Shown: in pieces, positions 2-37,515 of the stretch
How the letters are laid out: each line of letters starts with the position of its first letter
How positions within the stretch are numbered: position 1 is the stretch's first letter
Assembly (NCBI GenBank): GCA_964016885.1
Contig: OZ024741.1
Location: 126,542,001 to 126,606,000, forward strand
Direction of reading: 5' to 3'
Source: Eledone cirrhosa
Taxonomy: Eukaryota
DNA: 64,000 nt
Program-made: the position numbers and the translations under genes
Notes under the pieces: model-generated
Database searches by the model: none
Seen by the model: only the letters and a program-made list of their open reading frames with translations
Told to the model about the DNA's origin: nothing

Positions 2-1519
2 ATCATCCTCACCGCACGTAAAACCATCCTAGAGTTCAACAACGAATATTGGACCAGAGCCGATACCTCTAACAACTTCGACATCACAATGGGAGCATCC
101 GATTCATCCCAATTGACTGATTTAATTGGTATCTTCATTTTGAACTCTTTGAGTCGGAAAATTCCTCAACTTCGCGGTGGAATTTATCGTGACGATGGAC
201 TCTTTACTATCCTAAATTGCAATATAGTTAACCTTAATATTATTAAGAACAATATACGTAATCTCTTTAACCAACATAACCTAAAAATTGAATTTGATAA
301 TAGTATCAAACTAGCTAATTTCTTGGATGTATCTCTTAATCTTGACACTGGCCTATATTACCCTTACCATAAAAACAATGAGAACCTAAATTATGTTAAC
401 TTTAAATCTAACCATCCTACCAATATCAAGAATGCTATAGTTAATAATATTGGAAAAAGAATATCTAACATATCTTCTAATAAAAACATCTTTGATGCTA
501 ACTCCAATTACTATAATAACGTACTTTCTAAAGCCGGCTATCCAGATAAAATCAAATATAGTAAAGAAACAAATTCTAGAAAAACTTACAGTAGAATAAT
601 TAATCATGACCATTCCAATAATTTTAATAAAAGACCTAGATACAAAAACATAATCTGGTATAATGCTCCTTTCTCCATCTCTATTAATAACAATATTCCT
701 AAATTATTTTTTAGTGCCTTAAATAAATGCTTCCCTCCCTCACATATCTATAGTAAAATATTTAACAAACACACCATCAAATTTTCGTATTCTACATCCT
801 CCAATATTTCCAACATCATCTCTAAACACAACAATAAAATACTAAATACTAAATCTCTTCCTTCCAATATTGAATTTCATAATAACAGTAATAGTACTCC
901 CGACGTCATTGTAAACCCTAGGCTAACTTCTGTAAACCCAAATACAACGTCAAACACAACTTCGCTAAATGTTCATAATCCAACTCTAAATCAAGAAACT
1001 ATTATTCCTATTATTCCTATCGCAAACAACTTCTCCAATCCAATTCCTTCTATAGATAACACTAGGTCACTCATTAATAATCTCTCTAATTGCAACTGCC
1101 GCATTAAAAATAAATATCCTCTCAACAACCATTGTCTCGATAAAAACTTAATTTATGAATGTAAAATTATAACTAGCACCAATTCCTTCACTTATTTTGG
1201 CTTCACTTCCACCTCTTTTAAAGCTCGTCTCTATAATCATCATTCATCTTTCAAATACAAACTTAAAAGAACCAACACTGCTCTCTCAGAACTCATATGG
1301 TCCTTAAAAGACAAAAACATTAAATATACCATCTTTTGGAAGAAGGTTTCTTCTGCATCCTCATACTTGAACAGCTCTCTATCTAAAATCTGTAATCTCT
1401 GCCTAAATGAAAAATTTACCATTATCTCTAACCTAGATTCTATAATAAATAGACGTACAGATTTGTTTTCTATCTGCCTGCATAAATTCCATAGAACTGT
1501 TCACAAAGTATACAGTTAA
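2..1519 (+). CDS. Penelope-like element ORF (RT C-terminal part + GIY-YIG endonuclease), open from the window start (PLE-1)
   Basis: Frame is open from position 2 (IILTARKTILEF...FDITMGASDS); RT motif GGIYRDDGL; IIWYNAPFS, IFNKHTIKFSYS; CNCR..(Y)PL...C; GIY-YIG as LIY..YFG; C-terminal CNLCLNEK..IINRR..FSICLH. Confidence 0.92.
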   Translation: MILTARKTILEFNNEYWTRADTSNNFDITMGASDSSQLTDLIGIFILNSLSRKIPQLRGGIYRDDGLFTILNCNIVNLNIIKNNIRNLFNQHNLKIEFDNSIKLANFLDVSLNLDTGLYYPYHKNNENLNYVNFKSNHPTNIKNAIVNNIGKRISNISSNKNIFDANSNYYNNVLSKAGYPDKIKYSKETNSRKTYSRIINHDHSNNFNKRPRYKNIIWYNAPFSISINNNIPKLFFSALNKCFPPSHIYSKIFNKHTIKFSYSTSSNISNIISKHNNKILNTKSLPSNIEFHNNSNSTPDVIVNPRLTSVNPNTTSNTTSLNVHNPTLNQETIIPIIPIANNFSNPIPSIDNTRSLINNLSNCNCRIKNKYPLNNHCLDKNLIYECKIITSTNSFTYFGFTSTSFKARLYNHHSSFKYKLKRTNTALSELIWSLKDKNIKYTIFWKKVSSASSYLNSSLSKICNLCLNEKFTIISNLDSIINRRTDLFSICLHKFHRTVHKVYS

Positions 1520-2550
1520 TATTCAATTCTTTATCAATTTAGAATCTTTTCTCAAAGGCACATATACATACACCTCTTTAAAATATACCCATCTACCTTA
1601 CTTTAAAGGGCATTATACACTCTATAATACTTGTTTACTCATTACCCTCATTCTATCTCCACCTTGTAAAATCATAACATATACATTTGTTGTTTTGACG
1701 TTAGAATATTCATCCGCAATCATTATTATTTTTTCTCTCTATCATAAATCTTTTTAATCTCAATTTCATCCTTAATTTATTATTTTTTTCTCCCCATCAA
1801 CGAACTCATTATTAATACATATTAACTCTTTATTCGCATATATTATCAATTCCTTCAATATACAAACTTTAACTCCACATTATTTTTCTCAAATCCTTCT
1901 ACACACAAACCTTAATAATTTTTCTCTTCGTTAATTTTGAAATTGCCACAATATCTTATCAACATACATTTCTTTTTTTGACGTTAGAATATTCATCCAC
2001 AATTATTATTTTTTCTCTCTATCTTCATACATAAATTCCCTTCGTTAATTTTCAAATTCCTTTAATTTATACATTATCTTCCAACGGTTCCCAACCTCTC
2101 TATGTAAAACTGTATATCTTTTTCTCAGTTATAAAAACTATCTCTTTCTCTCTATCACCCATCTCTCCCTCTCCACCTTCACTCTCATCTCCTCCCCCTT
2201 TTTCATCCCTTCACCCCCTCCCTAAATAAAATATTTTTTCCTCACACATATCCTCCCTTCGTTAATTTTCAAAATTTTTTTTAATTTTTAATTTATACAT
2301 TATCTTCCGACGGTTTTCAACCTCTCTATGTAAAACAATATATCTCCTCTCAGTTATAAAAACTATCTCTTTCTCTCTATCACCCATCTCTCCCTCTCAT
2401 CTCCTTCCCTTTTTCGTCCTTTCCACCCCCCCCTCTCTAAATAAAATATTTTTCCCAATATCACACATCAATCTAAAACCACTTTTCATATGTTGATTTA
2501 AAACTGCACTATCCACAAGTGTTTTTTAGCCTTCATATCATGTTCTCCTG

Positions 2551-2618
2551 TTTTATCTGATGAAAACACAAATATTATTGCATGATGATGTTTGTTTTTG
2601 AAATGCGCATAATAAAAT
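2551..2618 (+). ncRNA. Type I minimal hammerhead ribozyme in PLE-1 pLTR
   Basis: TTTTAT-CTGATGA(2557)-helix II-GAAA(2600)-TGCGCA-TA-ATAAAA; palindromic helix III. Confidence 0.8.
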
Positions 2619-2649
2619 ACATGGAACTCCTTTAACCATCTTTTGATCT

Positions 2650-2686
<37 letters not shown>

Positions 2687-3630: not shown

Positions 3631-3945
3631 ATTTGTAGTTGTCCCAAATTGAAAGATAAGTATTTTAAACTTTATTTTATCATGAGTTAAGGCTCTATTA
3701 ATTTTTCCCTGGATTTCACTAAATTCTGTTGGATAAATCTATATCCTGATTCTTTTTTGAATTGAGTTTGAATTATTTTCCCACATCTTACGTTAACTAT
3801 TTTCCTATTTTGACGTTATAGTCACTTATATATTATGGAATACTGTTGGCTTCTTGCTACAATACTTTCTATACATTTCAATTATATATATATATATACA
3901 TATATTACATATATATATACATATATTATGTATATATTATATATA

Positions 3946-3976
<31 letters not shown>

Positions 3977-4161
3977 CATAGATATATATATATATATATA
4001 CATATATATATCATATATATATATATATATATATATATGAATATAGACATAGAATATTCGAAAATATTCTGTATGTTTATAATAAACATTTTGAAGACCT
4101 AATCGCTATAGAATAGAATACGTCACGTATTACAATTAGATTCTCGATAAAAGCAAGGGAA

Positions 4162-4204
4162 GTAATCTACGCGTTTCATTCTCGTTAGAAATCATCAGGA
4201 CTAC
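4162..4204 (-). ncRNA. Minimal type I hammerhead, family B, minus strand (second copy 4472-4514)
   Basis: Reverse complement of the 5048-5090 motif. Confidence 0.85.
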
Positions 4205-5047
4205 ATATCCAGTGCTTTTATCGAGAATGACACAGCTAGAGACTTATAGAATACTTAGCTGTGTACAGGAACTGGTTTGAAAGAGCGGTTGCCGGTCCGG
4301 CAGAAATTAGAAATTGGAATAAATGCTCTGAAATAGCGATATATATGTGAATATAGACATAGAATATTCGAAAATATTCTGTATGTTTATAATAAACATT
4401 TTGAAGACCTAATCGCTATAGAATAGAATACGTCACGTATTACAATTAGATTCTCGATAAAAGCAAGGGAAGTAATCTACGCGTTTCATTCTCGTTAGAA
4501 ATCATCAGGACTACATATCCAGTGCTTTTATCGAGAATGACACAGCTAGAGACTTATAGAATACTTAGCTGTGTACAGGAACTGGTTTGAAAGAGCGGTT
4601 GCCGGTCCGGCAGAAATTAGAAATTGGAATAAATGCTCTGAAATAGCGATATATATGTGAATATAGACATAGAATATTCGAAAATATTCTGTATGTTTAT
4701 AATAAACATTTTGAAGACCTAATCGCTATAGAATAGAATACGTCACGTATTACAATTAGAGAATGAAACGCGTAGATTACTTCCCTTGCTTTTATTGAGA
4801 ATCTAATTGTAATACGTGACGTATTCTATTCTATAGCGATTAGGTCTTCAAAATGTTTATTATAAACATACAGAATATTTTCGAATATTCTATGTCTATA
4901 TTCACATATATATCGCTATTTCAGAGCATTTATTCCAATTTCTAATTTCTGCCGGACCGGCAACCGCTCTTTCAAACCAGTTCCTGTACACAGCTAAGTA
5001 TTCTATAAGTCTCTAGCTGTGTCATTCTCGATAAAAGCACTGGATAT

Positions 5048-5090
5048 GTAGTCCTGATGATTTCTAACGAGAATGAAACGCGTAGATTAC
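5048..5090 (+). ncRNA. Minimal type I hammerhead, family B (identical copies at 5358-5400, 5668-5710, 5978-6020)
   Basis: GTAGTC-CTGATGA-T TTCT aacg AGAA T-GAAA-CGCG-TA-GATTAC; helix I extended by a 16-bp IR ATTCTCGATAAAAGCA/TGCTTTTATCGAGAAT. Confidence 0.85.
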
Positions 5091-6277
5091 TTCCCTTGCT
5101 TTTATCGAGAATCTAATTGTAATACGTGACGTATTCTATTCTATAGCGATTAGGTCTTCAAAATGTTTATTATAAACATACAGAATATTTTCGAATATTC
5201 TATGTCTATATTCACATATATATCGCTATTTCAGAGCATTTATTCCAATTTCTAATTTCTGCCGGACCGGCAACCGCTCTTTCAAACCAGTTCCTGTACA
5301 CAGCTAAGTATTCTATAAGTCTCTAGCTGTGTCATTCTCGATAAAAGCACTGGATATGTAGTCCTGATGATTTCTAACGAGAATGAAACGCGTAGATTAC
5401 TTCCCTTGCTTTTATCGAGAATCTAATTGTAATACGTGACGTATTCTATTCTATAGCGATTAGGTCTTCAAAATGTTTATTATAAACATACAGAATATTT
5501 TCGAATATTCTATGTCTATATTCACATATATATCGCTATTTCAGAGCATTTATTCCAATTTCTAATTTCTGCCGGACCGGCAACCGCTCTTTCAAACCAG
5601 TTCCTGTACACAGCTAAGTATTCTATAAGTCTCTAGCTGTGTCATTCTCGATAAAAGCACTGGATATGTAGTCCTGATGATTTCTAACGAGAATGAAACG
5701 CGTAGATTACTTCCCTTGCTTTTATCGAGAATCTAATTGTAATACGTGACGTATTCTATTCTATAGCGATTAGGTCTTCAAAATGTTTATTATAAACATA
5801 CAGAATATTTTCGAATATTCTATGTCTATATTCACATATATATCGCTATTTCAGAGCATTTATTCCAATTTCTAATTTCTGCCGGACCGGCAACCGCTCT
5901 TTCAAACCAGTTCCTGTACACAGCTAAGTATTCTATAAGTCTCTAGCTGTGTCATTCTCGATAAAAGCACTGGATATGTAGTCCTGATGATTTCTAACGA
6001 GAATGAAACGCGTAGATTACTTCCCTTGCTTTTATCGAGAATCTAATTGTAATACGTGACGTATTCTATTCTATAGCGATTAGGTCTTCAAAATGTTTAT
6101 TATAAACATACAGAATATTTTCGAATATTCTATGTCTATATTCACATATATATCGCTATTTCAGAGCATTTATTCCAATATATATATATATATATATATT
6201 TATTTATATATATATTATATATATATATATTATATATATATATATTTATTTATATATATATTATATATATATACATA

Positions 6278-6328
<51 letters not shown>

Positions 6329-6429
6329 ATATTTATTTATATATATATTATATATATATATTATATATATATATTATATATATATACATATATATTATAT
6401 ATATATATATATACATATATACATATATA

Positions 6430-8644: not shown

Positions 8645-10069
8645 TCAGATATTCAGGACGTATCGGAGGGTTCTTGCTGTTCCAAGCAAGCATGCCTTTT
8701 GAAGCGTTCCAAAAAGCGTGAAGGGGCCGATTTTCTTTAACCATCCCTGGAAACTTTTGGAGATAGTCCCCAGTGCGCCTATGACAATCGAGATCACTTT
8801 GACTTCATGGCAGTTCCAAATCCTTTTCACCTCCCACTTTAGGTCCTGGTATCGGTTAATTTTCTCCCTCTCCTTCTCTTGCACTCTCGTGTCGAACGGG
8901 CAGGCCACATCCACAATCAGGCACGATCTTTTTTCTTTGTCCACAACCACCAGGTCAGGTCTATTGTGTTCCAGTTTTTTGTCCGTCTGTATCCTAAAAT
9001 CCCACAGCACCTTCACCTGATTGTTCTCCATCACCGCCTCTGGCCTATGCTCATACCATTTCTCAGAATGTGGTAAATTGTTTACTTTGCACAGGTGCCA
9101 GTGGATCACCCTGCCCATCACATCGTGTCTCCAGCCCTTATAGTGGGTCTGGGCTAGGTGTTTACACTCGGATACAATGTGAGCCACAGTCTCCTCTCTC
9201 TCTCCACAGATCCTGCACAGTGGGCTAGCCTCCTCCTTGTAGATATGGTGCTTCAACCACTTCGTTTTGAGGGCCTGCTCCTGCGCAGCCATTAGCATTC
9301 CTTCTGTAGCCTTTTTGAGGTCTCCTCTTCTCAACCAGTTCCATGTCTGTGGATCTCTAAATTCAGTTTTCTCAAAGAAGGTACTATGAAGGGATTTTCC
9401 CTTAAGGCTGCTCTTCCTCCTTGATGTTATTTCCTCCTTGGACATCCCCTGGCCTACTGTCCCCTCCTTCAGTACAGTTCTGAGCATTGGCTCCTTACTA
9501 TAGGTCACGTATTTGTATAGGTTGTTTTTCTCCATCTGAACACAGTCCTCTATGCTGATAAGACCTCTTCCACCCTCAGATCTCCTTAGGTAGAGTCTAT
9601 CGACATCACTCCTCTTGTGGAACATGTTGTAGATAGTCAATAGCTTCCTAGTCTTCCTATCCATTTCTTTTTGTTCAGCAACATTCCATCTCAGAATTCC
9701 CGCACTGTACCTAATAATAGACACAGCTCGGGAATTTACTGCGCTTATGGCATTTCTGCTGTTCAGATGTGACTTCAATACGCTCCTTACTCTCCGAATG
9801 TATTCAGTTCTTAACAATTCCTTCATTTTTTTGTTCTTTATGCCATCAGCCTCCAGAACGCCCAAATACTTGTATCCTTCCTCAGAGTCAATTTCCTTTA
9901 TCATCTCACCTGTTGGTATCTGGATCCCGTTACTTCTGCTCAACCTGCCCCTCTTCATCACAATGACTCCACATTTACCAATACATATATCACTGCTGAA
10001 AATACGGACAGTGTCAACAAGCACATCCAACTCCTTCTCACTTTTCCCGAAGAGCTTAAGATCGTCCAT
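8645..10069 (-). CDS. RT C-terminus + CCHC zinc knuckle + restriction-like endonuclease
   Basis: (HLLF)MDDLKL, YKYLG, RLYLRRSEGGRGL, AAQEQAL, CRICGEREETVAHIVSEC, RHD, RPDLVVVD..IVDVACP, EKINRY; apparent short in-frame deletion near SSDICIGKC. Confidence 0.9.
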   Translation of the reverse strand: MDDLKLFGKSEKELDVLVDTVRIFSSDICIGKCGVIVMKRGRLSRSNGIQIPTGEMIKEIDSEEGYKYLGVLEADGIKNKKMKELLRTEYIRRVRSVLKSHLNSRNAISAVNSRAVSIIRYSAGILRWNVAEQKEMDRKTRKLLTIYNMFHKRSDVDRLYLRRSEGGRGLISIEDCVQMEKNNLYKYVTYSKEPMLRTVLKEGTVGQGMSKEEITSRRKSSLKGKSLHSTFFEKTEFRDPQTWNWLRRGDLKKATEGMLMAAQEQALKTKWLKHHIYKEEASPLCRICGEREETVAHIVSECKHLAQTHYKGWRHDVMGRVIHWHLCKVNNLPHSEKWYEHRPEAVMENNQVKVLWDFRIQTDKKLEHNRPDLVVVDKEKRSCLIVDVACPFDTRVQEKEREKINRYQDLKWEVKRIWNCHEVKVISIVIGALGTISKSFQGWLKKIGPFTLFGTLQKACLLGTARTLRYVLNI

Positions 10070-10080
10070 GAAGAGGAGGT

Positions 10081-10345: not shown

Positions 10346-10403
<58 letters not shown>

Positions 10404-10531
10404 AAAGTTCTATTTAAATTGTTGGGATACAACAAGCAAATATTTTTATGACTGATATAAAGCACTCAACAAGTATTTGGAGTAAACACACGATATTACC
10501 AAATGGAAACTATATTTATAAAACCATATTT

Positions 10532-10594
10532 ATTTCATTATACATATTTCAAGGACACCACGTTAAATTATGGTGTGCTTTCATCAGACAAAAT
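10532..10594 (-). ncRNA. Hammerhead in the inverted pLTR of PLE-2
   Basis: Reverse complement reads TTTTGT-CTGATGA-AAGCACACCAT..GTGGTGTCCTT-GAAA-TATGTA-TA-ATGAAA. Confidence 0.75.
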
Positions 10595-10902
10595 ATAATA
10601 TAGATCAGTTTTATAAATAAATATTGACATACCCTTAAAAAATGCAACCATTACTGTTGGAAGCTCCCGGATAGTGGAGTTGTTTACTTATATTAATATT
10701 AGTATTGGATATTTTTATTTTTAAAAATAAGCCGTTGGGTTACAGAGAAAGAAAAAGAAGGAGAGAGAGAAAAAGAAAGAAAAAAAGAAAAAAGAGAGAA
10801 AGGAGAGAGAGAAAAAGAAAGAAAAAAAGAAAAAAGAGAGAAAGGAGAGAGAGAGATACCAAAACAACAGAGAGAGAGAGAAAGATATATAGAGAGAGAA
10901 GA

Positions 10903-12488
10903 GACAGAATAATACCACAAATTAAGAATTTATCTAATTTATCTTATTTAAAATTATGGAAAGGAACTAGTGAAGTTATCGATTGGTTTAAAGAAATTAA
11001 ATATAACTATAATAATAAGTTTATTCAGTTGGATATTACTAACTACTACTCATCTATCACTCCTAATCTACTGAATAAGGCACTAACTTATGCATTTAAA
11101 CATACAGACATAACTAGCAATGAAATACACATTATATTATCGGCACGGAAAACATTAATAGAATTTAATAACCAACTCTGGACTAGGGCAGATAGAAATA
11201 ATAATTTCGACATAACTATGGGATCTTCCGACTCCGCTCAGGTAACGGATCTTGTGGGCCTATTTATAATTAATTCTTTACATAGAAAAATACCTGAGAT
11301 AACCGGAGGCTTATATCGTGACGACATGCTTTTACTTATAGAAAATAATAACTGTGAACTAAATAGAAAAAGAAAACAAATTATACAATTTTTTAATTAC
11401 CTTAATCTAAAAGTAGAAATAGAGAATAACCATAAAATAGTCAATTTTCTAGATGTAACACTAAATCTTAACACATGTCTTCATTATCCATTTCACAAAC
11501 TAAATGAGAACTTAAATTATGTCAATTTTAACTCTAATCACCCCAGATCCGTTAAAAATACTATAGTGAACTCTGTACAATAACGAATTTCGAGTATTTC
11601 AGCTAATAAGAATATATCTGATGAAAAAGCACATTATTACAACGAAGCGTTAGGTAGAGCTGGGTATAGAAATAAAATTAAATACATCGATAATAATAAT
11701 AATATAACAACTAACCATAATCGTAACAATTTTAACTATGATAACAATTTTAACAACTATAATAGAAAACCTTACATTAATTCCGAAAGCCGAAAAAGAA
11801 ATAGAACTAGGAACATATTATGGTTCGCTCCTCCTTTCTCATTAAATATTAAAACCCCTATTGCTAAACTATTATTTAAAGCTCTTGACAAATGCTTCCC
11901 TAGAACACATAAATATTACTCAATTTTTAATAGACATACTATTAAATTAACTTATTCTTCCACCAAAAATTTAGCGCAAAATATTATTAGAATTAATAAT
12001 AGAAATTTAAAACCTAACCAAAATACCAATAATAACCCAAGCAATATTCAATCTGATAAATGTAACTGTAGAAATAAATCTAACTGTCCTTTAAATAACA
12101 ATTACTTAGCTAAAAATGTAGTATATAATTGTAATGTAAAAACTAATTTAAATTCATTTAATTATGTGGGATCTAATTCCACAGAGTTTAAATCCCGCTT
12201 CAATAATCATAAAAATTCTTTTACAGATCCAAACAAAAAATCTTCAACTTCTCTATCTAGACTATTATGGGACCTAAAACTAGAGAACGTTGAATATTCG
12301 TTGATTTGGAATATTATTTCAAAGCTACTCCTTTTAATTCCTCTTCAGAAAATTGCGACCTTTGTATAGAGGAAATATTCTTTATATTAAAGACCAAAAA
12401 TTCCCTGAACTTAAGGAATAATTTATTCAATTGCTGCAGTCATAGATTAAACTCAACATTTAAATATAAATATAAATTTAAAATGTAG
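10903..12488 (+). pseudogene. PLE-2 RT + GIY-YIG ORF, disrupted (stop at 11581, frameshift ~12320)
   Basis: FIQLDITNYYSSI, FDITMGSSDSAQ, GGLYRDD, NFLDVTLNL, ILWFAPPFS, CNCRNKSNCPL, VVY..YVG, CDLCIEE, CSH. Confidence 0.9.
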
Positions 12489-13939
12489 TATATAATTAAT
12501 TAATTAATTTTATTAATATATGAAACCTGTCGATAAATCATTAGATTCCTTTATCTTTTTTTGATTAAACACTCAAGTATAAATAACTTTTCTTCCTAAA
12601 TATAAATAAAAATAATATAATAAACTATTCTATAGAAATATATTGAGAGCTCTTGAAAGGAGAAAATGTTTCCTATTTTTATTTTTATTTTTTTATTGTT
12701 TTTTTATTTTTTTATTATTTTCTTATAGCTTCTCCTATTTTCGAGATTTATCCTTTCAATATTTTTAGTTAAATATAAGTAAGACAAATTTGTATACTAA
12801 ATCTATTAAACATACTATTATTTTGAAATTATAACTTAAAATATTCTATAATATTTTAAAATTGTATTGCTTTTAAAGTTATATTGCTATAATTATATTT
12901 ACAAATTGTAATATAATCCATTTGTATTTTATGTACTCAATTATACTATGTACTGTATTGATGTATACTTCTCTCTATATGTGAGTGTATATGTGTATGT
13001 GTATATTGACATACATGTACATATGTTCTATGCGTTTTTATGAATATATGTCTGTCTGTATGTATATGTATACGTGATGCGTATCTACCTATTGGCTGAG
13101 GATACACACACATGTATATATATGTATATGTGAGAATTATATATGTACATGTGCGTGTATATCCATACAATTTGATTGCACTTATGTATAATGTTTATCC
13201 CAATGATTCCTGAGAGATAGACATATAATTAACAGCCATAAATACAAAACAGGTAATCTTATATATATATATAAATTTTATTTAATAACATAAAGTGTGT
13301 ATAACATTAAATTAAAGAATCCTTTATGCTTTGTGTGTATATATTATATACGTAGTTAGATATGGTATGTATTTTATAAGTGTGTATATATATTTATATG
13401 TATTTTTGCGTGCGTGTACGTGTTATATGATATTTAGTTCTCTAGCAATATATGGATTTCTTAATGTATAGATCCCAATTTTTAATTTATTGATCTCAAT
13501 TTTTAAATGATTAACTAAACATCTAAGCATATTTAAACAATGATTAATTTCTCATATTATATATGTCATTCATGATTATTAACATTTCTAATTTTATTTA
13601 TTCATTTCATCTCAATTGTTAAGTTAACTCAACAAGATATGACTTAGAGTTTTCGTTCTCTCCCCTTCTCTCTGTCTCCTCTCTCTCTCTATATCTTTCT
13701 CTCTCTTTTGTATTGGTATCTCTCTCTCTCTTTTCTCTCTTTTTTCTTTTTTTTCTTTCTTTTTCTCTCTATCCTTCTTTTTCTTTCTTTGTAACCCAAC
13801 GGCTTATTTAAAAAAATAAAAATATCCAATACTAATATTAATATAAGTAAATAACTCCACTATCCGGGAGCTTCCAACAGTAATGGTTGCATTTTTTAAG
13901 GGTATGTCAATATTTATTTATAAAACTGATCTATATTAT

Positions 13940-14025
13940 ATTTTGTCTGATGAAAGCACACCATAATTTAACTTGCTTTCACACCATAATTTAACGTGGT
14001 GTCCTTGAAATATGTATAATAAAAT
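13940..14025 (+). ncRNA. Hammerhead in the 3' pLTR of PLE-2
   Basis: CTGATGA at 13947, GAAA at 14007, TATGTA-TA-ATAAAA; 23-nt insertion/duplication inside helix II. Confidence 0.75.
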
Positions 14026-14065
14026 AAATATGGTTTTATAAATATAGTTTCCATTTGTTAATATC

Positions 14066-15930
<1,865 letters not shown>

Positions 15931-21393: not shown

Positions 21394-21402
21394 AATTAAA
21401 TA

Positions 21403-23546
21403 ATGGAATTCTTTAAGATCTCTTCTTCTCTAAAAGACATACCTCTACCTAAGAATAAGGACTATCTCAAACAACTCATTGAGAAATTTGACTCCTTTAT
21501 AAGAAGACTTAGATGGCGTGCCTTCCATTTCGATAGAAATCAGATGAAAAAACGAATAAATCCAACTTCGATATGATCTTCAAATCCAAGAAAAATCCAC
21601 TATTAATGGAATTTGAAAATGAAATAATATCAATTATACAAAACATCAAATTCAAGAAAAAAACAATTTGTAGGCCAGGAATACCTTAAAGGCCTTAAGA
21701 ATAATATAAAAAACTGAGAAAATTCTCGTTAAATCTGACAAAACCAACAATCTATATGGAATGCAAAAGGACGAATATAATAATCTAAGGAAAAACTATA
21801 AAAGAACAACCAATGATGACCCTGAAATGCTAAATAGAGAAGCTTCTGATATAATTCATAAATTAGGCATCGAAAATAGGACCGAACCCTTTATACCTAG
21901 AAAACCAAAAATTAATTTGAAAGACCTCAAAAGAAACTTTGAAATAGAATTACCAGTTAGACTTATAGCACCATCTAAAACAGACTTGGGCATAGTTAGT
22001 AAACATATATTAGATAGAATCATACCGCAATCTAAAGAAATATCTTACTTAAAACTATGGAACGGTACTAATGAAGTTATAGATTGGCTCAATAACATAA
22101 AATATAAGCATAACAAAAAATTCATTCAGTTGGATATTGCAAATTACTACTCATCTATCACTCCTAATTTACTTAATAAGCCCTTATCTACGCATCTAAA
22201 TATACTGATTTATCTAGTGATGAAATGCATATCATTTTAACTGCACGGAAAATCTTAATTAAATTTAACAACCATCTTTGGACCAGAGCAGATAGAGATA
22301 ATCATTTCGATATCAGACTCGGCGCAAATAACAGATCTTGTGGGGCTTTTTATTAACAATACATTACATAGAAAACTACCGGAGATGACCGGTGGTTTAT
22401 ATCGTGATGATATGCTCCTGTTAATTGAAAATAATAATAATTGTGAAATCAATAGAAAAAGAAAATCAATAATACAATGTTTGAATAGCTATAATCTTAA
22501 GTTAGAAATAGAGAATAATTATAAAATTGTTAACTTTTTAGACGTAACATTAAACCTTAATACTGGGCCTTACTATCCATTCCATAAAATTAATGAGAAC
22601 TTAAACTATGTTAGCTTCAACTCTAATCATCCTAGATCCATTAAGAACACTATCGTAAATTCTGTACAACAACGTATTTCTCGAATCTCAGCGAATAAAA
22701 GTATATTTGAAGATAAGGCACAATATTATAACGAAGCCTTAAGTAGAGCAGGCTATAATAATTAAATTAAATACATCGACAACAATGATAAGGCAATTAA
22801 CCATAATATTAATTATAATTATAATAAGAAACCTAGCATAAACTCTAAAACTAACAGAAGAAATAGAACTAGAAACATAATCTGGTATGCTCCTTCATTT
22901 TCACACCTTTAGCTAAACTATTTTTAAAGCTCTTGATAAATGTTTTCCCAAGGCCCATAGATATTACTCAATCTTTAACAGACATACAATTAAACTCTCT
23001 TACTCTACTACTAAGAACCTAGCACAAAATATAAATAGAATCAATAATAGAAATCTAAACCTTAACCAGAATAGCACTAATACCTCTAGCAATGTTCCGA
23101 ATAATATAAACTCTGATAAATGTAATTGTAGAATTAAATCTAACTGTCCTTTAAAAAATAACTGTTTAGTTAAAAATGTGGTCTATAAATGCAACGTCAA
23201 AACCAATGATAATAGTTTTAACTATTTTGGCTCAACTTTAAAGACTTTAAATCTCGTTTCAATAACCATAAATGCTCGTTTAATAATATTGGTAAAAAAT
23301 CTTCAACTTCTCTATCCAACTTGATATGGAACTTAAAATCCAAAAATAGAGACTATTCTTTAACTTGGAATATAATTTCAAAGCACCCGCTTACAATACA
23401 CAGCTTTATCCAAATTTTGCAAACTGTGTGTTGAGGGAATTTTCTTCATACTTAAATGTAAGAACTCCATTAACTTACGTAACAATTTATTTAGTTCTTG
23501 TAAACATCGCCAAAACTCAACTTTTAGATCTATATATAAAATATAA
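21403..23546 (+). pseudogene. PLE-3 complete-length ORF remnant (N-term + RT + GIY-YIG), multiple frameshifts and stops
   Basis: ATG at 21403 gives MEFFKISSSLKDIPLP..YLKQLIEKFDSFIRRLRWRAFHF; KSDKTNN; RLIAPSK; LDIANYYSSI; GGLYRDD; CNCRIKSNCPL; CKH. Confidence 0.9.
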
Positions 23547-25045
23547 TTACACGTTTAATCTTCTCTACATAATGTTTACTTTATCCAAACACCTATAATC
23601 TCATTTCTTAAATTATATGCATATATGTTCATAAATTCTAAATCTTTAAATTTAAATTTAACGTAATTCTAATTTTAATAGCTTTTACTTCTTAAATATA
23701 TATAATTTACTTCTTAAATCTTTACTTTTTAATATTTTTACTTCTTAAATATCTTTATTTTTTATCATTATTTTTATCATTATTTTTTATCTTTATTTAC
23801 CTTACTTCCAAAATATTTCATAATCTTTTTAGAAAAATTACTTAAAATTTTTTTAAATTACTTATTTCCAAAAAAGACTATTTTATTTTGGTCATCTTAA
23901 TATTTTAAATATATTTTTAAATATTTTTAAATATTTTAAAGTATTTTTAAATATTTCTTAATATTTCTTTATATTTTTTGAATAATTTTAGGTTTTTAAT
24001 TAATTTTAAACACTTTATAAATGTTTTTAAAAGGTTTTTGAATAACTTCGGAGTCTTTTTGAGATCTTTTAAAAATCTCTCGGAAAGTTTTTCCAGGAAT
24101 TTTCAAGAATTTTGTCTTGAATTGTTAATATGTTATAGTCTTAATTTTTAAATGGTTTTAGTATTTTCTTATACTTTTAATAATTTTTAATTTTTTAATT
24201 ATTTAATATTAGAGTTATAACCAATAACTAACTCTGGCTAAATATATTTTTAAACATATCTTTGTCAAAATTATCTCATAATAAATAATAAATAAACAAA
24301 ACTGGGATTTTCTATATTTTTCCAATGTAAAACATTAAAAACATATAAGTAATCTTGTTAACTCAGTTAATTTAATTTAATTTAATTTAATTTAAATACT
24401 TACACTAAATATAGACTTGTATCCCTCATAATTTATCATCTATAACATGATATACCCATCTATCCACTCATATATCTATCCTTATATCTATCCTTATATT
24501 TATATTTTATCCTACGCTTCTACTTCATATTTATTTTAAATCTATTTTCTAATATATTTTAATATATTTTAATATATCTTAATATATTATAATATATCTT
24601 TATCTTTTAATATATGTTTATTTTTTCTATTTATCTAATTTTTTATATACATATAATAGTAAATAAATATTTATTATAATAGAATTCTAACAATTATTAG
24701 TAAATATACGTAACATAAATCTGAAACATAAACATAAGACTTATTTACGTTATATGAACTCATCCTCGGATAAGCTTCTTTCTTCGCTCTTTCTTCACTC
24801 TATTTCTTCACTCCATTTCTACATATACTAATTTCTTTTCTTTTCTTTCTCTTCTTTTTTTTCTCTCTCTTCTTCCCACAGCGTAATTTAAATAAACGGT
24901 TGTTTTCTTCAATTTTTCGGACATTCATTTGCATATTCACACAGAACTTTGAATTACCCTCAATAAAATCTTTCACTATCCAGCGAATTTTCAACCGTCA
25001 AGGTTGTTTTCCACGGTTATGTGACTATTTATAAAACAAATATTG

Positions 25046-25110
25046 TATTTTATCTGATGAAAGCGCTCCAAGATTGCCTTGGTTGCCCTTGAAATATATG
25101 TAATAAAATA
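25046..25110 (+). ncRNA. Hammerhead in the PLE-3 3' pLTR
   Basis: TATTTTAT-CTGATGA(25054)-AAGCGC..GCCCTT-GAAA(25091)-TATATG-TA-ATAAAATA. Confidence 0.8.
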
Positions 25111-25148
25111 ATTATGGTTTTATAAATATAGTTTCCATTTATTAATAT

Positions 25149-25198
<50 letters not shown>

Positions 25199-37082: not shown

Positions 37083-37515
37083 AAGTTAAATAAAAGTCAA
37101 ATGATTAAAATTTAGCTTCGTTTATTACTGCTATATATATTTCAGTGACAGCCATCTATGGCTATGACCTCTTCAGGCAGTTTGAATTAGTATGGTATAG
37201 ACAAGTACATATGTTGTTTAGGTGTATGATATTGTCAATACTCTGATATGCCCAGTTCCTTGCTGGGTTGTTTATTCACTGGGGAACTGGAGTCATGACT
37301 CCAGTTCCCCAGTGAATTAACAACCCAGCAAGGAACTGGGCATATCAGAGTATTGACAATATCATACACCTAAACAACATATGTACTTGTCTATACCATA
37401 CTAATTCAAACTGCCTGAAGAGGTCACAGCCAAAGATGGCTGTCACTGAAATATATATAGCAGTAATAAACGAAGCTAAATTTTAATCATTTGACTTTTA
37501 TTTAACTTTATTTTA
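37076..37515. repeat. Near-perfect 440-bp palindrome with two outward-facing hammerheads
   Basis: Centre GAGTCATGACTC (37295/37296); few mismatches. Confidence 0.95.
37410..37464 (+). ncRNA. Type I hammerhead (mirror copy 37127-37181, minus strand)
   Basis: ACTGC-CTGAAGA-GGTCACAGCCA..TGGCTGTCACT-GAAA-TATATA-TA-GCAGT. Confidence 0.8.

Follow-up and report, generated by a model that had tools for sequence, protein, structure and literature searches.

Non-LTR retrozymes have been described in metazoans such as coral, mussel and axolotl (PMC7229834, PMC7761336, bioRxiv 10.64898/2026.07.22.740005). According to the main texts of these studies, their non-coding tandem units of 150-450 bp each carry one type I hammerhead, are low in GC, have a weak palindromic helix III that requires a dimer, and are self-paired in their predicted fold, all of which are shared by the repeat analysed here. 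The same texts report that metazoan retrozymes co-occur with Penelope-like elements (PLEs) and propose PLEs as their mobilisers and rolling-circle reverse transcription as their mode of copying (PMC7229834, PMC7761336, 10.64898/2026.07.22.740005), although in the main text of one of them no conserved motif points to the retrozyme partner (PMC7761336). The expression of circles has been demonstrated for the published retrozymes, whereas the family described below, family B, is described here from its DNA sequence.

The PLEs themselves leave a characteristic insertion. Endonuclease-bearing PLEs are described as having an inverted 5'-truncated copy and a 30-40-bp "tail" at a single end (PMC8557442), which is 31 bp in a rotifer copy (PMC3846280) and which was equated in vitro with the distance between two internal start sites of the reverse transcriptase (RT) (PMC11167929). 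In that in vitro study the enzyme, predicted to be a dimer, cut and extended both target strands. The main texts on PLEs further give target duplications of about 8-10 bp in rotifers, microsatellite targets that are (TA)n for the Hydra clade, and a hammerhead upstream of the two RT start sites (PMC8557442, PMC3846280, PMC11167929). These sources (PMC7229834, PMC8557442, PMC11167929) present two questions as open: by what means animal retrozymes move, and why PLE insertions take the form of tandem and inverted copies tailed at a single end.

We analysed a window of 64,000 nucleotides of Eledone cirrhosa DNA in which family B forms a two-arm array of a 310-bp unit. Tandem Repeats Finder (TRF) assigned this period to 2.4 copies at 4029-4760 and 4.6 copies at 4759-6179. 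Numbering the unit from 5085, the base following GUA at 5084, arm A (4038..4760, minus strand, 2.3 units) runs from an inner junction at unit position 28 to a fixed end A at 130/131, and arm B (4759..6179, plus strand, 4.6 units) runs from an inner junction at position 295, in loop II/helix II of the hammerhead, to a fixed end B at 163-165. The arms meet head-to-head at 4759..4760 with a microhomology of 2 nt. The plus arm differs from the periodic unit at a single base (C>T at 4796, unit position 22), the sole internal substitution, and the minus arm at one base, 4037 on the (TA)n border, which is best read as target DNA rather than element, so that the element proper spans 4038-6177/6179. 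It lies between (TA)n tracts at 3883..4037, where the duplication is unreadable, and at 6178..6429, the TA-rich right flank. The preliminary description of this array, with 2.3 minus-strand and 4.6 plus-strand units, one substitution near 4796, a strand switch near 4760 within helix II and a setting in (TA)n, is thus confirmed by TRF and by unit comparison, with the switch now located to 2 nt. No ORF of 100 aa was found inside the array, bar TA-derived frames at its edges, and the RT and GIY-YIG ORF expected of an autonomous PLE is absent from it. The GC content of the repeat is 0.32-0.35.

Every full unit of the array carries the hammerhead core motif, CUGAUGA...GAAA, at 5054, 5364, 5674 and 5984 on the plus strand and at 4508 and 4198 on the minus strand. 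The whole type I motif (5048..5090, plus strand, with further copies at +310, +620 and +930; 4472..4514 and 4162-4204 on the minus strand in arm A) consists of a 6-bp helix I, CUGAUGA, a 4-bp helix II, GAAA and a helix III formed by the palindrome ACGCGU. A 16-bp perfect inverted repeat (5024..5112, plus strand), in which 5024-5039 pairs with 5097-5112, extends helix I; it had been noted before and is present together with the 6-bp helix I in the predicted fold of the monomer (z = -3.9 linear, -3.5 circular). The 6-nt helix III forms solely between two copies in a cofold, which has a predicted energy of -50.5 kcal/mol versus 2 x -22.2 kcal/mol for separate monomers and matches the dimer arrangement described for metazoan hammerheads in the main text of PMC4209133. 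Cleavage is predicted after GUA (5084), and one 310-nt monomer from this site to the next (5085..5394, plus strand) would be the circular RNA unit. A search of Rfam gave no hammerhead match in the window at the gathering score or at E<=10, and the putative ribozyme assignment rests on the motif, the modelled fold and the selection test given below.

The array is not confined to a single locus. An exact-pattern search of the 3.0-Gb assembly returned 16,631 exact matches to an internal 22-mer of family B (reversed control, 0); the exact patterns for the ends matched 1,258 times for A and 1,073 times for B. With 9.6 units in each inverted insertion, the 22-mer matches would correspond to about 1,700 insertions, and scaling the A ends by the 53/83 recovery among paired ends would give about 2,000, so family B likely comprises 1,700-2,000 very young, dispersed copies. 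We fetched 98 stretches of contig C1, 18 of them by the 22-mer (picked among the first 100 matches listed), 59 by end B plus one continuation, and 20 by end A; every sampled locus except the window is on this contig. These yielded 103 insertion groups including the window, namely 81 simple inversions, 1 complex inversion, 12 one-armed insertions and 9 that were dropped as cut by the fetch edge or an N gap. Inverted insertions thus account for 82 of the 94 complete ones and single arms for 12, and the unbiased set chosen by the 22-mer (n = 18) contained 14 inverted loci, 3 that were not and 1 that was cut. Units within arrays differ at 188 of 237,040 bases (0.079%), which supports the earlier claim of a recent insertion. 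As had been anticipated, other loci have variable unit numbers; the phase at the outer ends, which had been expected to vary as well, is instead fixed.

The window array is a single insertion from a young, dispersed family of the already known non-LTR retrozyme class: its 310-bp tandem unit falls within the 150-450-bp range and carries a type I hammerhead motif throughout, it has no coding capacity and a low GC content, and its dispersed loci have duplications of more than 4 bp. In runs X1 and X2 we recovered the monomer as a 340-nt self-joining contig, an outcome equally expected of a tandem DNA array. As a host-DNA control for the runs we used a truncated LINE ORF2 fragment of the window (8645-10079, minus strand; 4,444 exact 22-mer copies), which was also present in X1, X3 and X5 and absent from X2. 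Because this unrelated LINE is present too, run X1 is best read as host DNA and uninformative on expression.

The outer ends of these insertions follow a strict rule. All 82 complete inverted insertions have one outer end of class A and the other of class B, and none has A+A or B+B, combinations that random use of two sites would produce in half of the cases. The same A+B pairing was seen in 53/53 end pairs defined from coordinates alone (100 A and 83 B ends, the others being unpaired by exact patterns) and in 14/14 inverted loci chosen by the internal 22-mer. A target duplication is readable in 15 of 81 loci, where the TA tract is interrupted, and in the remaining loci it is unreadable in (TA)n; ten duplications are 11-14 nt long, and five of 20-40 nt, within long compound repeats, are regarded as uninformative. 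The duplications set end A at 130/131, beyond which target sequence takes the place of AUAUAUAU; end B they set at 163-165, or less commonly as far as 170 or 172, so that the two ends lie 33-40 nt apart. In the window the corresponding tail is the 33 nt between ends A and B at 6145..6177 (plus strand), found at the B end only, and it carries a 16-nt motif (6153-6168) common to a sister family, family C.

One A and one B end, an offset of 33-40 nt and duplications of 11-14 bp in (TA)n are the Penelope tail signature, and family B shows the inverted 5'-truncated copy with a 30-40-nt tail at a single end that is expected of a PLE-mobilised element. The PLE-type inversion proposed for the window is borne out more strongly than claimed, since the ends are fixed and inversion is the rule of the whole family rather than peculiar to the window. 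We consider it very probable that PLE machinery is the agent. Family B differs from PLEs in that it has no ORF and its arms are multi-unit arrays. Its strict one-A-one-B pairing and shared template are unreported in the main texts on PLEs that we consulted, and, unlike in family B, the start site is alike on both strands in the in vitro study (PMC11167929). Inverted two-arm insertions, fixed ends and a tail are likewise not described in the main texts consulted on metazoan retrozymes, whereas ends, tail and duplication are defined for family B. More generally, the main texts of the literature consulted, mostly open-access, contain no fixed-end inverted retrozyme arrays, no strict A+B rule and no twin-priming reading of PLE inversions. 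The retrozyme class and its proposed link to PLEs are already published; the insertion statistics bear directly on a mechanism that those sources leave open.

The two arms of an insertion mostly carry the same template. The 81 insertions fall into 37 haplotypes with a mean of 2.0 fixed differences from the majority, and two random templates would match by chance with a frequency of 0.08. Both arms have the same haplotype in 60 of 62 informative loci, a match that would be equally expected from two RNAs of one source locus in one cell, and 13 single-locus variants are fixed throughout the two arms, across as many as 25 units. The discordant loci are L060 and L088, in which the haplotype changes part-way along an arm; in L088 the two outermost units share a haplotype in both arms, from which arm B departs in its inner units. 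Such a part-way change (L088:1119-7520, L060:504-4522) fits an RT jumping between RNA molecules. Further, internal variants recur in a few arrays (L049, L050 and L112). Because of these discordant arms and repeated variants, we conclude that template switching or later DNA-level duplication occurs too.

A monomeric circle would account for these shared templates, and we regard it as the likely template. The preliminary description had proposed rolling-circle copying of a 310-nt circular RNA; such copying of a circular template gains indirect support from array homogeneity, ribozyme selection and shared arm haplotypes. Selection on the ribozyme is seen when transmitted substitutions, fixed across arrays, are compared with those within arrays: none of 9 transmitted types disrupts the hammerhead, compared with 13 of 16 within arrays (Fisher P = 1.1e-4), a result based on few and lineage-linked fixed variants. 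Taking paired hammerhead positions alone, disruptive changes were 0/3 transmitted and 13/16 within arrays (P = 0.02), and in the 16-bp stem they were 0/3 and 6/8 (P = 0.06), where the 3 fixed changes are A>G and yield G-U pairs. Elsewhere in the unit, beyond the hammerhead and the 16-bp stem, selection was not significant (P = 0.24). The test covers neither the haplotype switches at L060 and L088 nor a pair of fixed helix I insertions of 1 nt each. Inner ends fall at the cleavage site in 4 of 162 cases (expected 3.7), and since they do not pile up there, copying did not run off 5' ends made by the ribozyme. That the ribozyme has to stay intact although its cut ends never appear agrees with the route of cleavage and subsequent ligation that the main text of PMC7229834 proposes for retrozymes.

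Without a circle, the PLE enzyme might have twin-primed on linear multimers that were transcribed from source arrays and left long and uncleaved. For PLE insertion in vitro, hammerhead cleavage was indeed dispensable and unprocessed RNA was the dominant substrate in the account of PMC11167929, and such transcripts would be equally expected to give no pile-up at the cleavage site. The mixed-haplotype arms of L088 and the one mirrored unit-specific variant of L070 also favour them. However, unit variants of a source array should then be mirrored between arms, and where both arms overlap 7 substitutions are mirrored, against 61 that are not; six of the 7 belong to the L088 switch, which leaves L070 as the sole isolated case. 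Linear multimers also leave unexplained both the selection for an intact ribozyme in transmitted variants and the locus-private variants fixed throughout both arms, for which a single-unit bottleneck is required. We therefore judge this reading unlikely.

Where the arms meet and how long they are bears on the origin of the second arm. Across 81 loci the lengths of the two arms correlate weakly at most (rho 0.24); arm A is longer in 35 loci and arm B in 46, with medians of 3.2 and 4.4 units. The mean arm is 4.8 units, giving 9.6 units per inverted insertion, and the longest arm B reaches about 45 units (L074+L090). Inner ends are uniformly distributed over the unit (chi-square P = 0.42), as is the offset between them, which spans the whole unit, and 79 of 81 junctions are distinct. 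An overlap of at least 2 bases is present at 44/81 junctions, 12 of them with 15-48 nt at self-complementary stems, the 16-bp stem being used as junction microhomology at other family B loci; 19/81 are blunt or have 1 nt, and 18/81 contain inserts, several copied from nearby sequence. One insert of 54 nt is a copy of the nearby flank, one of 272 nt had no match among the sampled loci, and a search of the inserts for a partner element identified none. Because the junctions are random, the position of the window switch within helix II is incidental rather than meaningful. That they are random, distinct and variably overlapping indicates that the inversion was made at insertion by joining two independently ended copies.

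A single nucleic acid strand could instead have folded back, or primed itself, to give the second arm, as has been proposed for PLE inverted repeats from junction palindromes in the main text of PMC3846280. A shared arm haplotype is compatible with this, and besides the 12 junctions with overlaps at self-complementary stems, 9/81 are near-palindromic. These are not clearly enriched (P = 0.10), and self-priming is hard to reconcile with an inner-end offset that covers the whole unit, with outer ends that are both fixed and adjoin the duplicated target, and with templated inserts that indicate end joining. Either arm may also far exceed the other (19.0 versus 3.2 and 1.2 versus 27.3 units), and by these arm-length data self-priming is already disfavoured as a general route; we give it very little weight.

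Alternatively, short PLE-type insertions of 1-2 units per arm could have been expanded and homogenised later at the DNA level, as in satellites. Local amplification is favoured in the main text of a recent preprint (10.64898/2026.07.22.740005), and a variant pair of L050 that is repeated seven units apart and the recurring variants of L049 and L112 point the same way. At most loci, such expansion would have had to enlarge each arm separately within 0.08% divergence. Nested ladders of variants are seldom seen, and the arms of an autonomous PLE reach 2.5 full units of 4.1 kb at 99.99% identity, so we hold it to be most improbable as the source of the arrays. Finally, we give next to no probability to an assembly or fold-back chimera, or to a MITE-like DNA transposon whose interior is tandemly repeated. 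In their favour, the window junction is read from the assembly, and each end is an inverted copy of the other and lies in TA. Against them, the left flank is unlike the right, a constant 33-40 nt offsets the ends, the duplications are 11-14 bp rather than TA, 79/81 distinct junctions show that the inverted structure was not copied as a unit, and the identical TIRs, fixed short duplication and whole-structure copying of a MITE were not found.

Twin priming is known from the 5' inversions of LINE-1, where the segments lie head-to-head, the outer ends are primed from target nicks and the inner junction shows microhomology. The second LINE-1 primer acts internally at a site that varies, and on the linear RNA the two segments adjoin, whereas in family B both start sites are fixed and the arms overlap in sequence and contain many units each. 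We consider it highly likely that twin priming produced the family B inversions.

On the identity of the enzyme, we examined PLE families of the same genome, which were sampled for the comparison with family B rather than enumerated. A very young autonomous PLE (loci L279-L298 and L219-L248, e.g. G000:C1:307332500-307349400), with inverted A+B insertions in (TA)n, has intact 1,217-aa open frames with an asparagine-rich stretch in tandem units of 4.12-4.15 kb, and 150/150 scored matches to it were 100% identical over 200 aa, indicating at least 150 copies. It gives a weak RVT_1 match, carries a hammerhead motif and inserts in (TA)n. Its ends are A+B in 23/23 inverted loci with both ends read (16 of the 23 were chosen as inverted pairs, and two cut loci were dropped), its duplications are 12-15 nt in 6/24 loci, and its arms differ by 0-1 substitutions versus 3.2 between loci. 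Age, target and duplication agree with family B, while tail length (43-58 nt) and sequence differ. This element, at locus L048/L280, is a tentative candidate for the actual partner, though we would not favour it over the possibility of another.

Comparison of five PLE families with the family B priming region gave no convincing similarity (best z 0.75), and family C compared with the PLE family of L035 gave z of 2.2-2.6, among 20 comparisons. No autonomous element with the end region of families B, C or H was found among the PLEs sampled. A Hydra-like PLE in the window (10400-14070), with a CxCX5C linker and inverted pLTRs whose long left and short right ends are about 90 nt apart, was rejected as partner on its tail of about 90 nt without the shared motif; its family has 75,009 first-look candidates, some with open frames of 740-750 aa, and two further Hydra-like PLE copies in the window (2-2650 and 21400-25150, with hammerhead cores at 2557 and 25054) end in (TA)n. 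The likeness of family C to the beginning of this PLE's ORF was not significant, and 30 of 64 pattern matches examined were family C copies or unrelated, with no PLE ORF start. The PLE family of L109 was set aside for its different ends, and family H, once considered as a PLE partner, proved to be another retrozyme family, with no ORF joined among the matches listed (30 of 73 examined).

Two sister retrozymes (L129-L158, L189-L218, L299-L328), family C with a unit of 313-325 bp and family H with one of about 330 bp, are older and have hammerheads that differ from that of family B, yet they share its terminal region of 125 nt, and their ends fall at the same site relative to the conserved stretch. 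Family C has 6,712 motif matches at about 75-80% identity, and its end B lies 11 nt past the shared motif, as in family B. A separate family at L249 and L142 has a hammerhead core and helix II nearly as in family B and is otherwise different in sequence; given this likeness, family B may be a recombinant. At L043:1609-3964 an inverted PLE end runs directly, without TA, into 1.9 retrozyme units, a single case that is possibly a template switch between PLE and retrozyme RNA and equally a later insertion with deletion. More short families with hammerhead motifs end in (TA)n within the window (27763, 40482, 54520, 54985, 37176 and 37415), one of them as an inverted pair at about 37176-37415.

Taken as a whole, PLE enzyme twin-priming on (TA)n and rolling round one monomeric circle is the probable origin of family B insertions. 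Tandem transcripts would self-cleave via dimeric hammerheads, and the monomer would be circularised. The RT-endonuclease of a PLE, probably a dimer, would nick both (TA)n strands 11-14 nt apart, a spacing suggested by the observed duplications. Both nicks would prime on the same RNA, one of them at site A (130/131) and the second at site B (163-170), as suggested by the fixed ends and shared haplotype that we observed. Each RT would then go round more or fewer times, over 4.8 units on average and about 45 at most, before dropping off at random, in keeping with the observed arm lengths and junction positions, and the two cDNA ends would be joined head-to-head via microhomology or a short templated insert.

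Roughly 80 independent, nearly mutation-free insertion products discriminate between models, through strict A+B ends, one template per event, random drop-off and ribozyme selection in transmitted copies. They also supply reagents: a donor of 310 nt whose start sites are mapped, (TA)n as its target, and, from the same genome, a PLE ORF that is intact and apparently active. An RT able to prime both strands on a circular RNA, writing repeats by the kilobase, would be relevant to retroelement-based genome writing. We see an even chance that family B reflects a general Penelope mechanism, in which both strands are cut, about 12 nt from each other, by a dimeric RT-endonuclease whose two active sites begin at dedicated sites on one ribozyme-made circle and roll round it independently. 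If so, a single event would account at once for the hammerhead, the tail of PLEs and their inverted and tandem copies, and it would hold for a 310-nt parasite and an intact 4.1-kb autonomous PLE alike, replacing the self-priming model.
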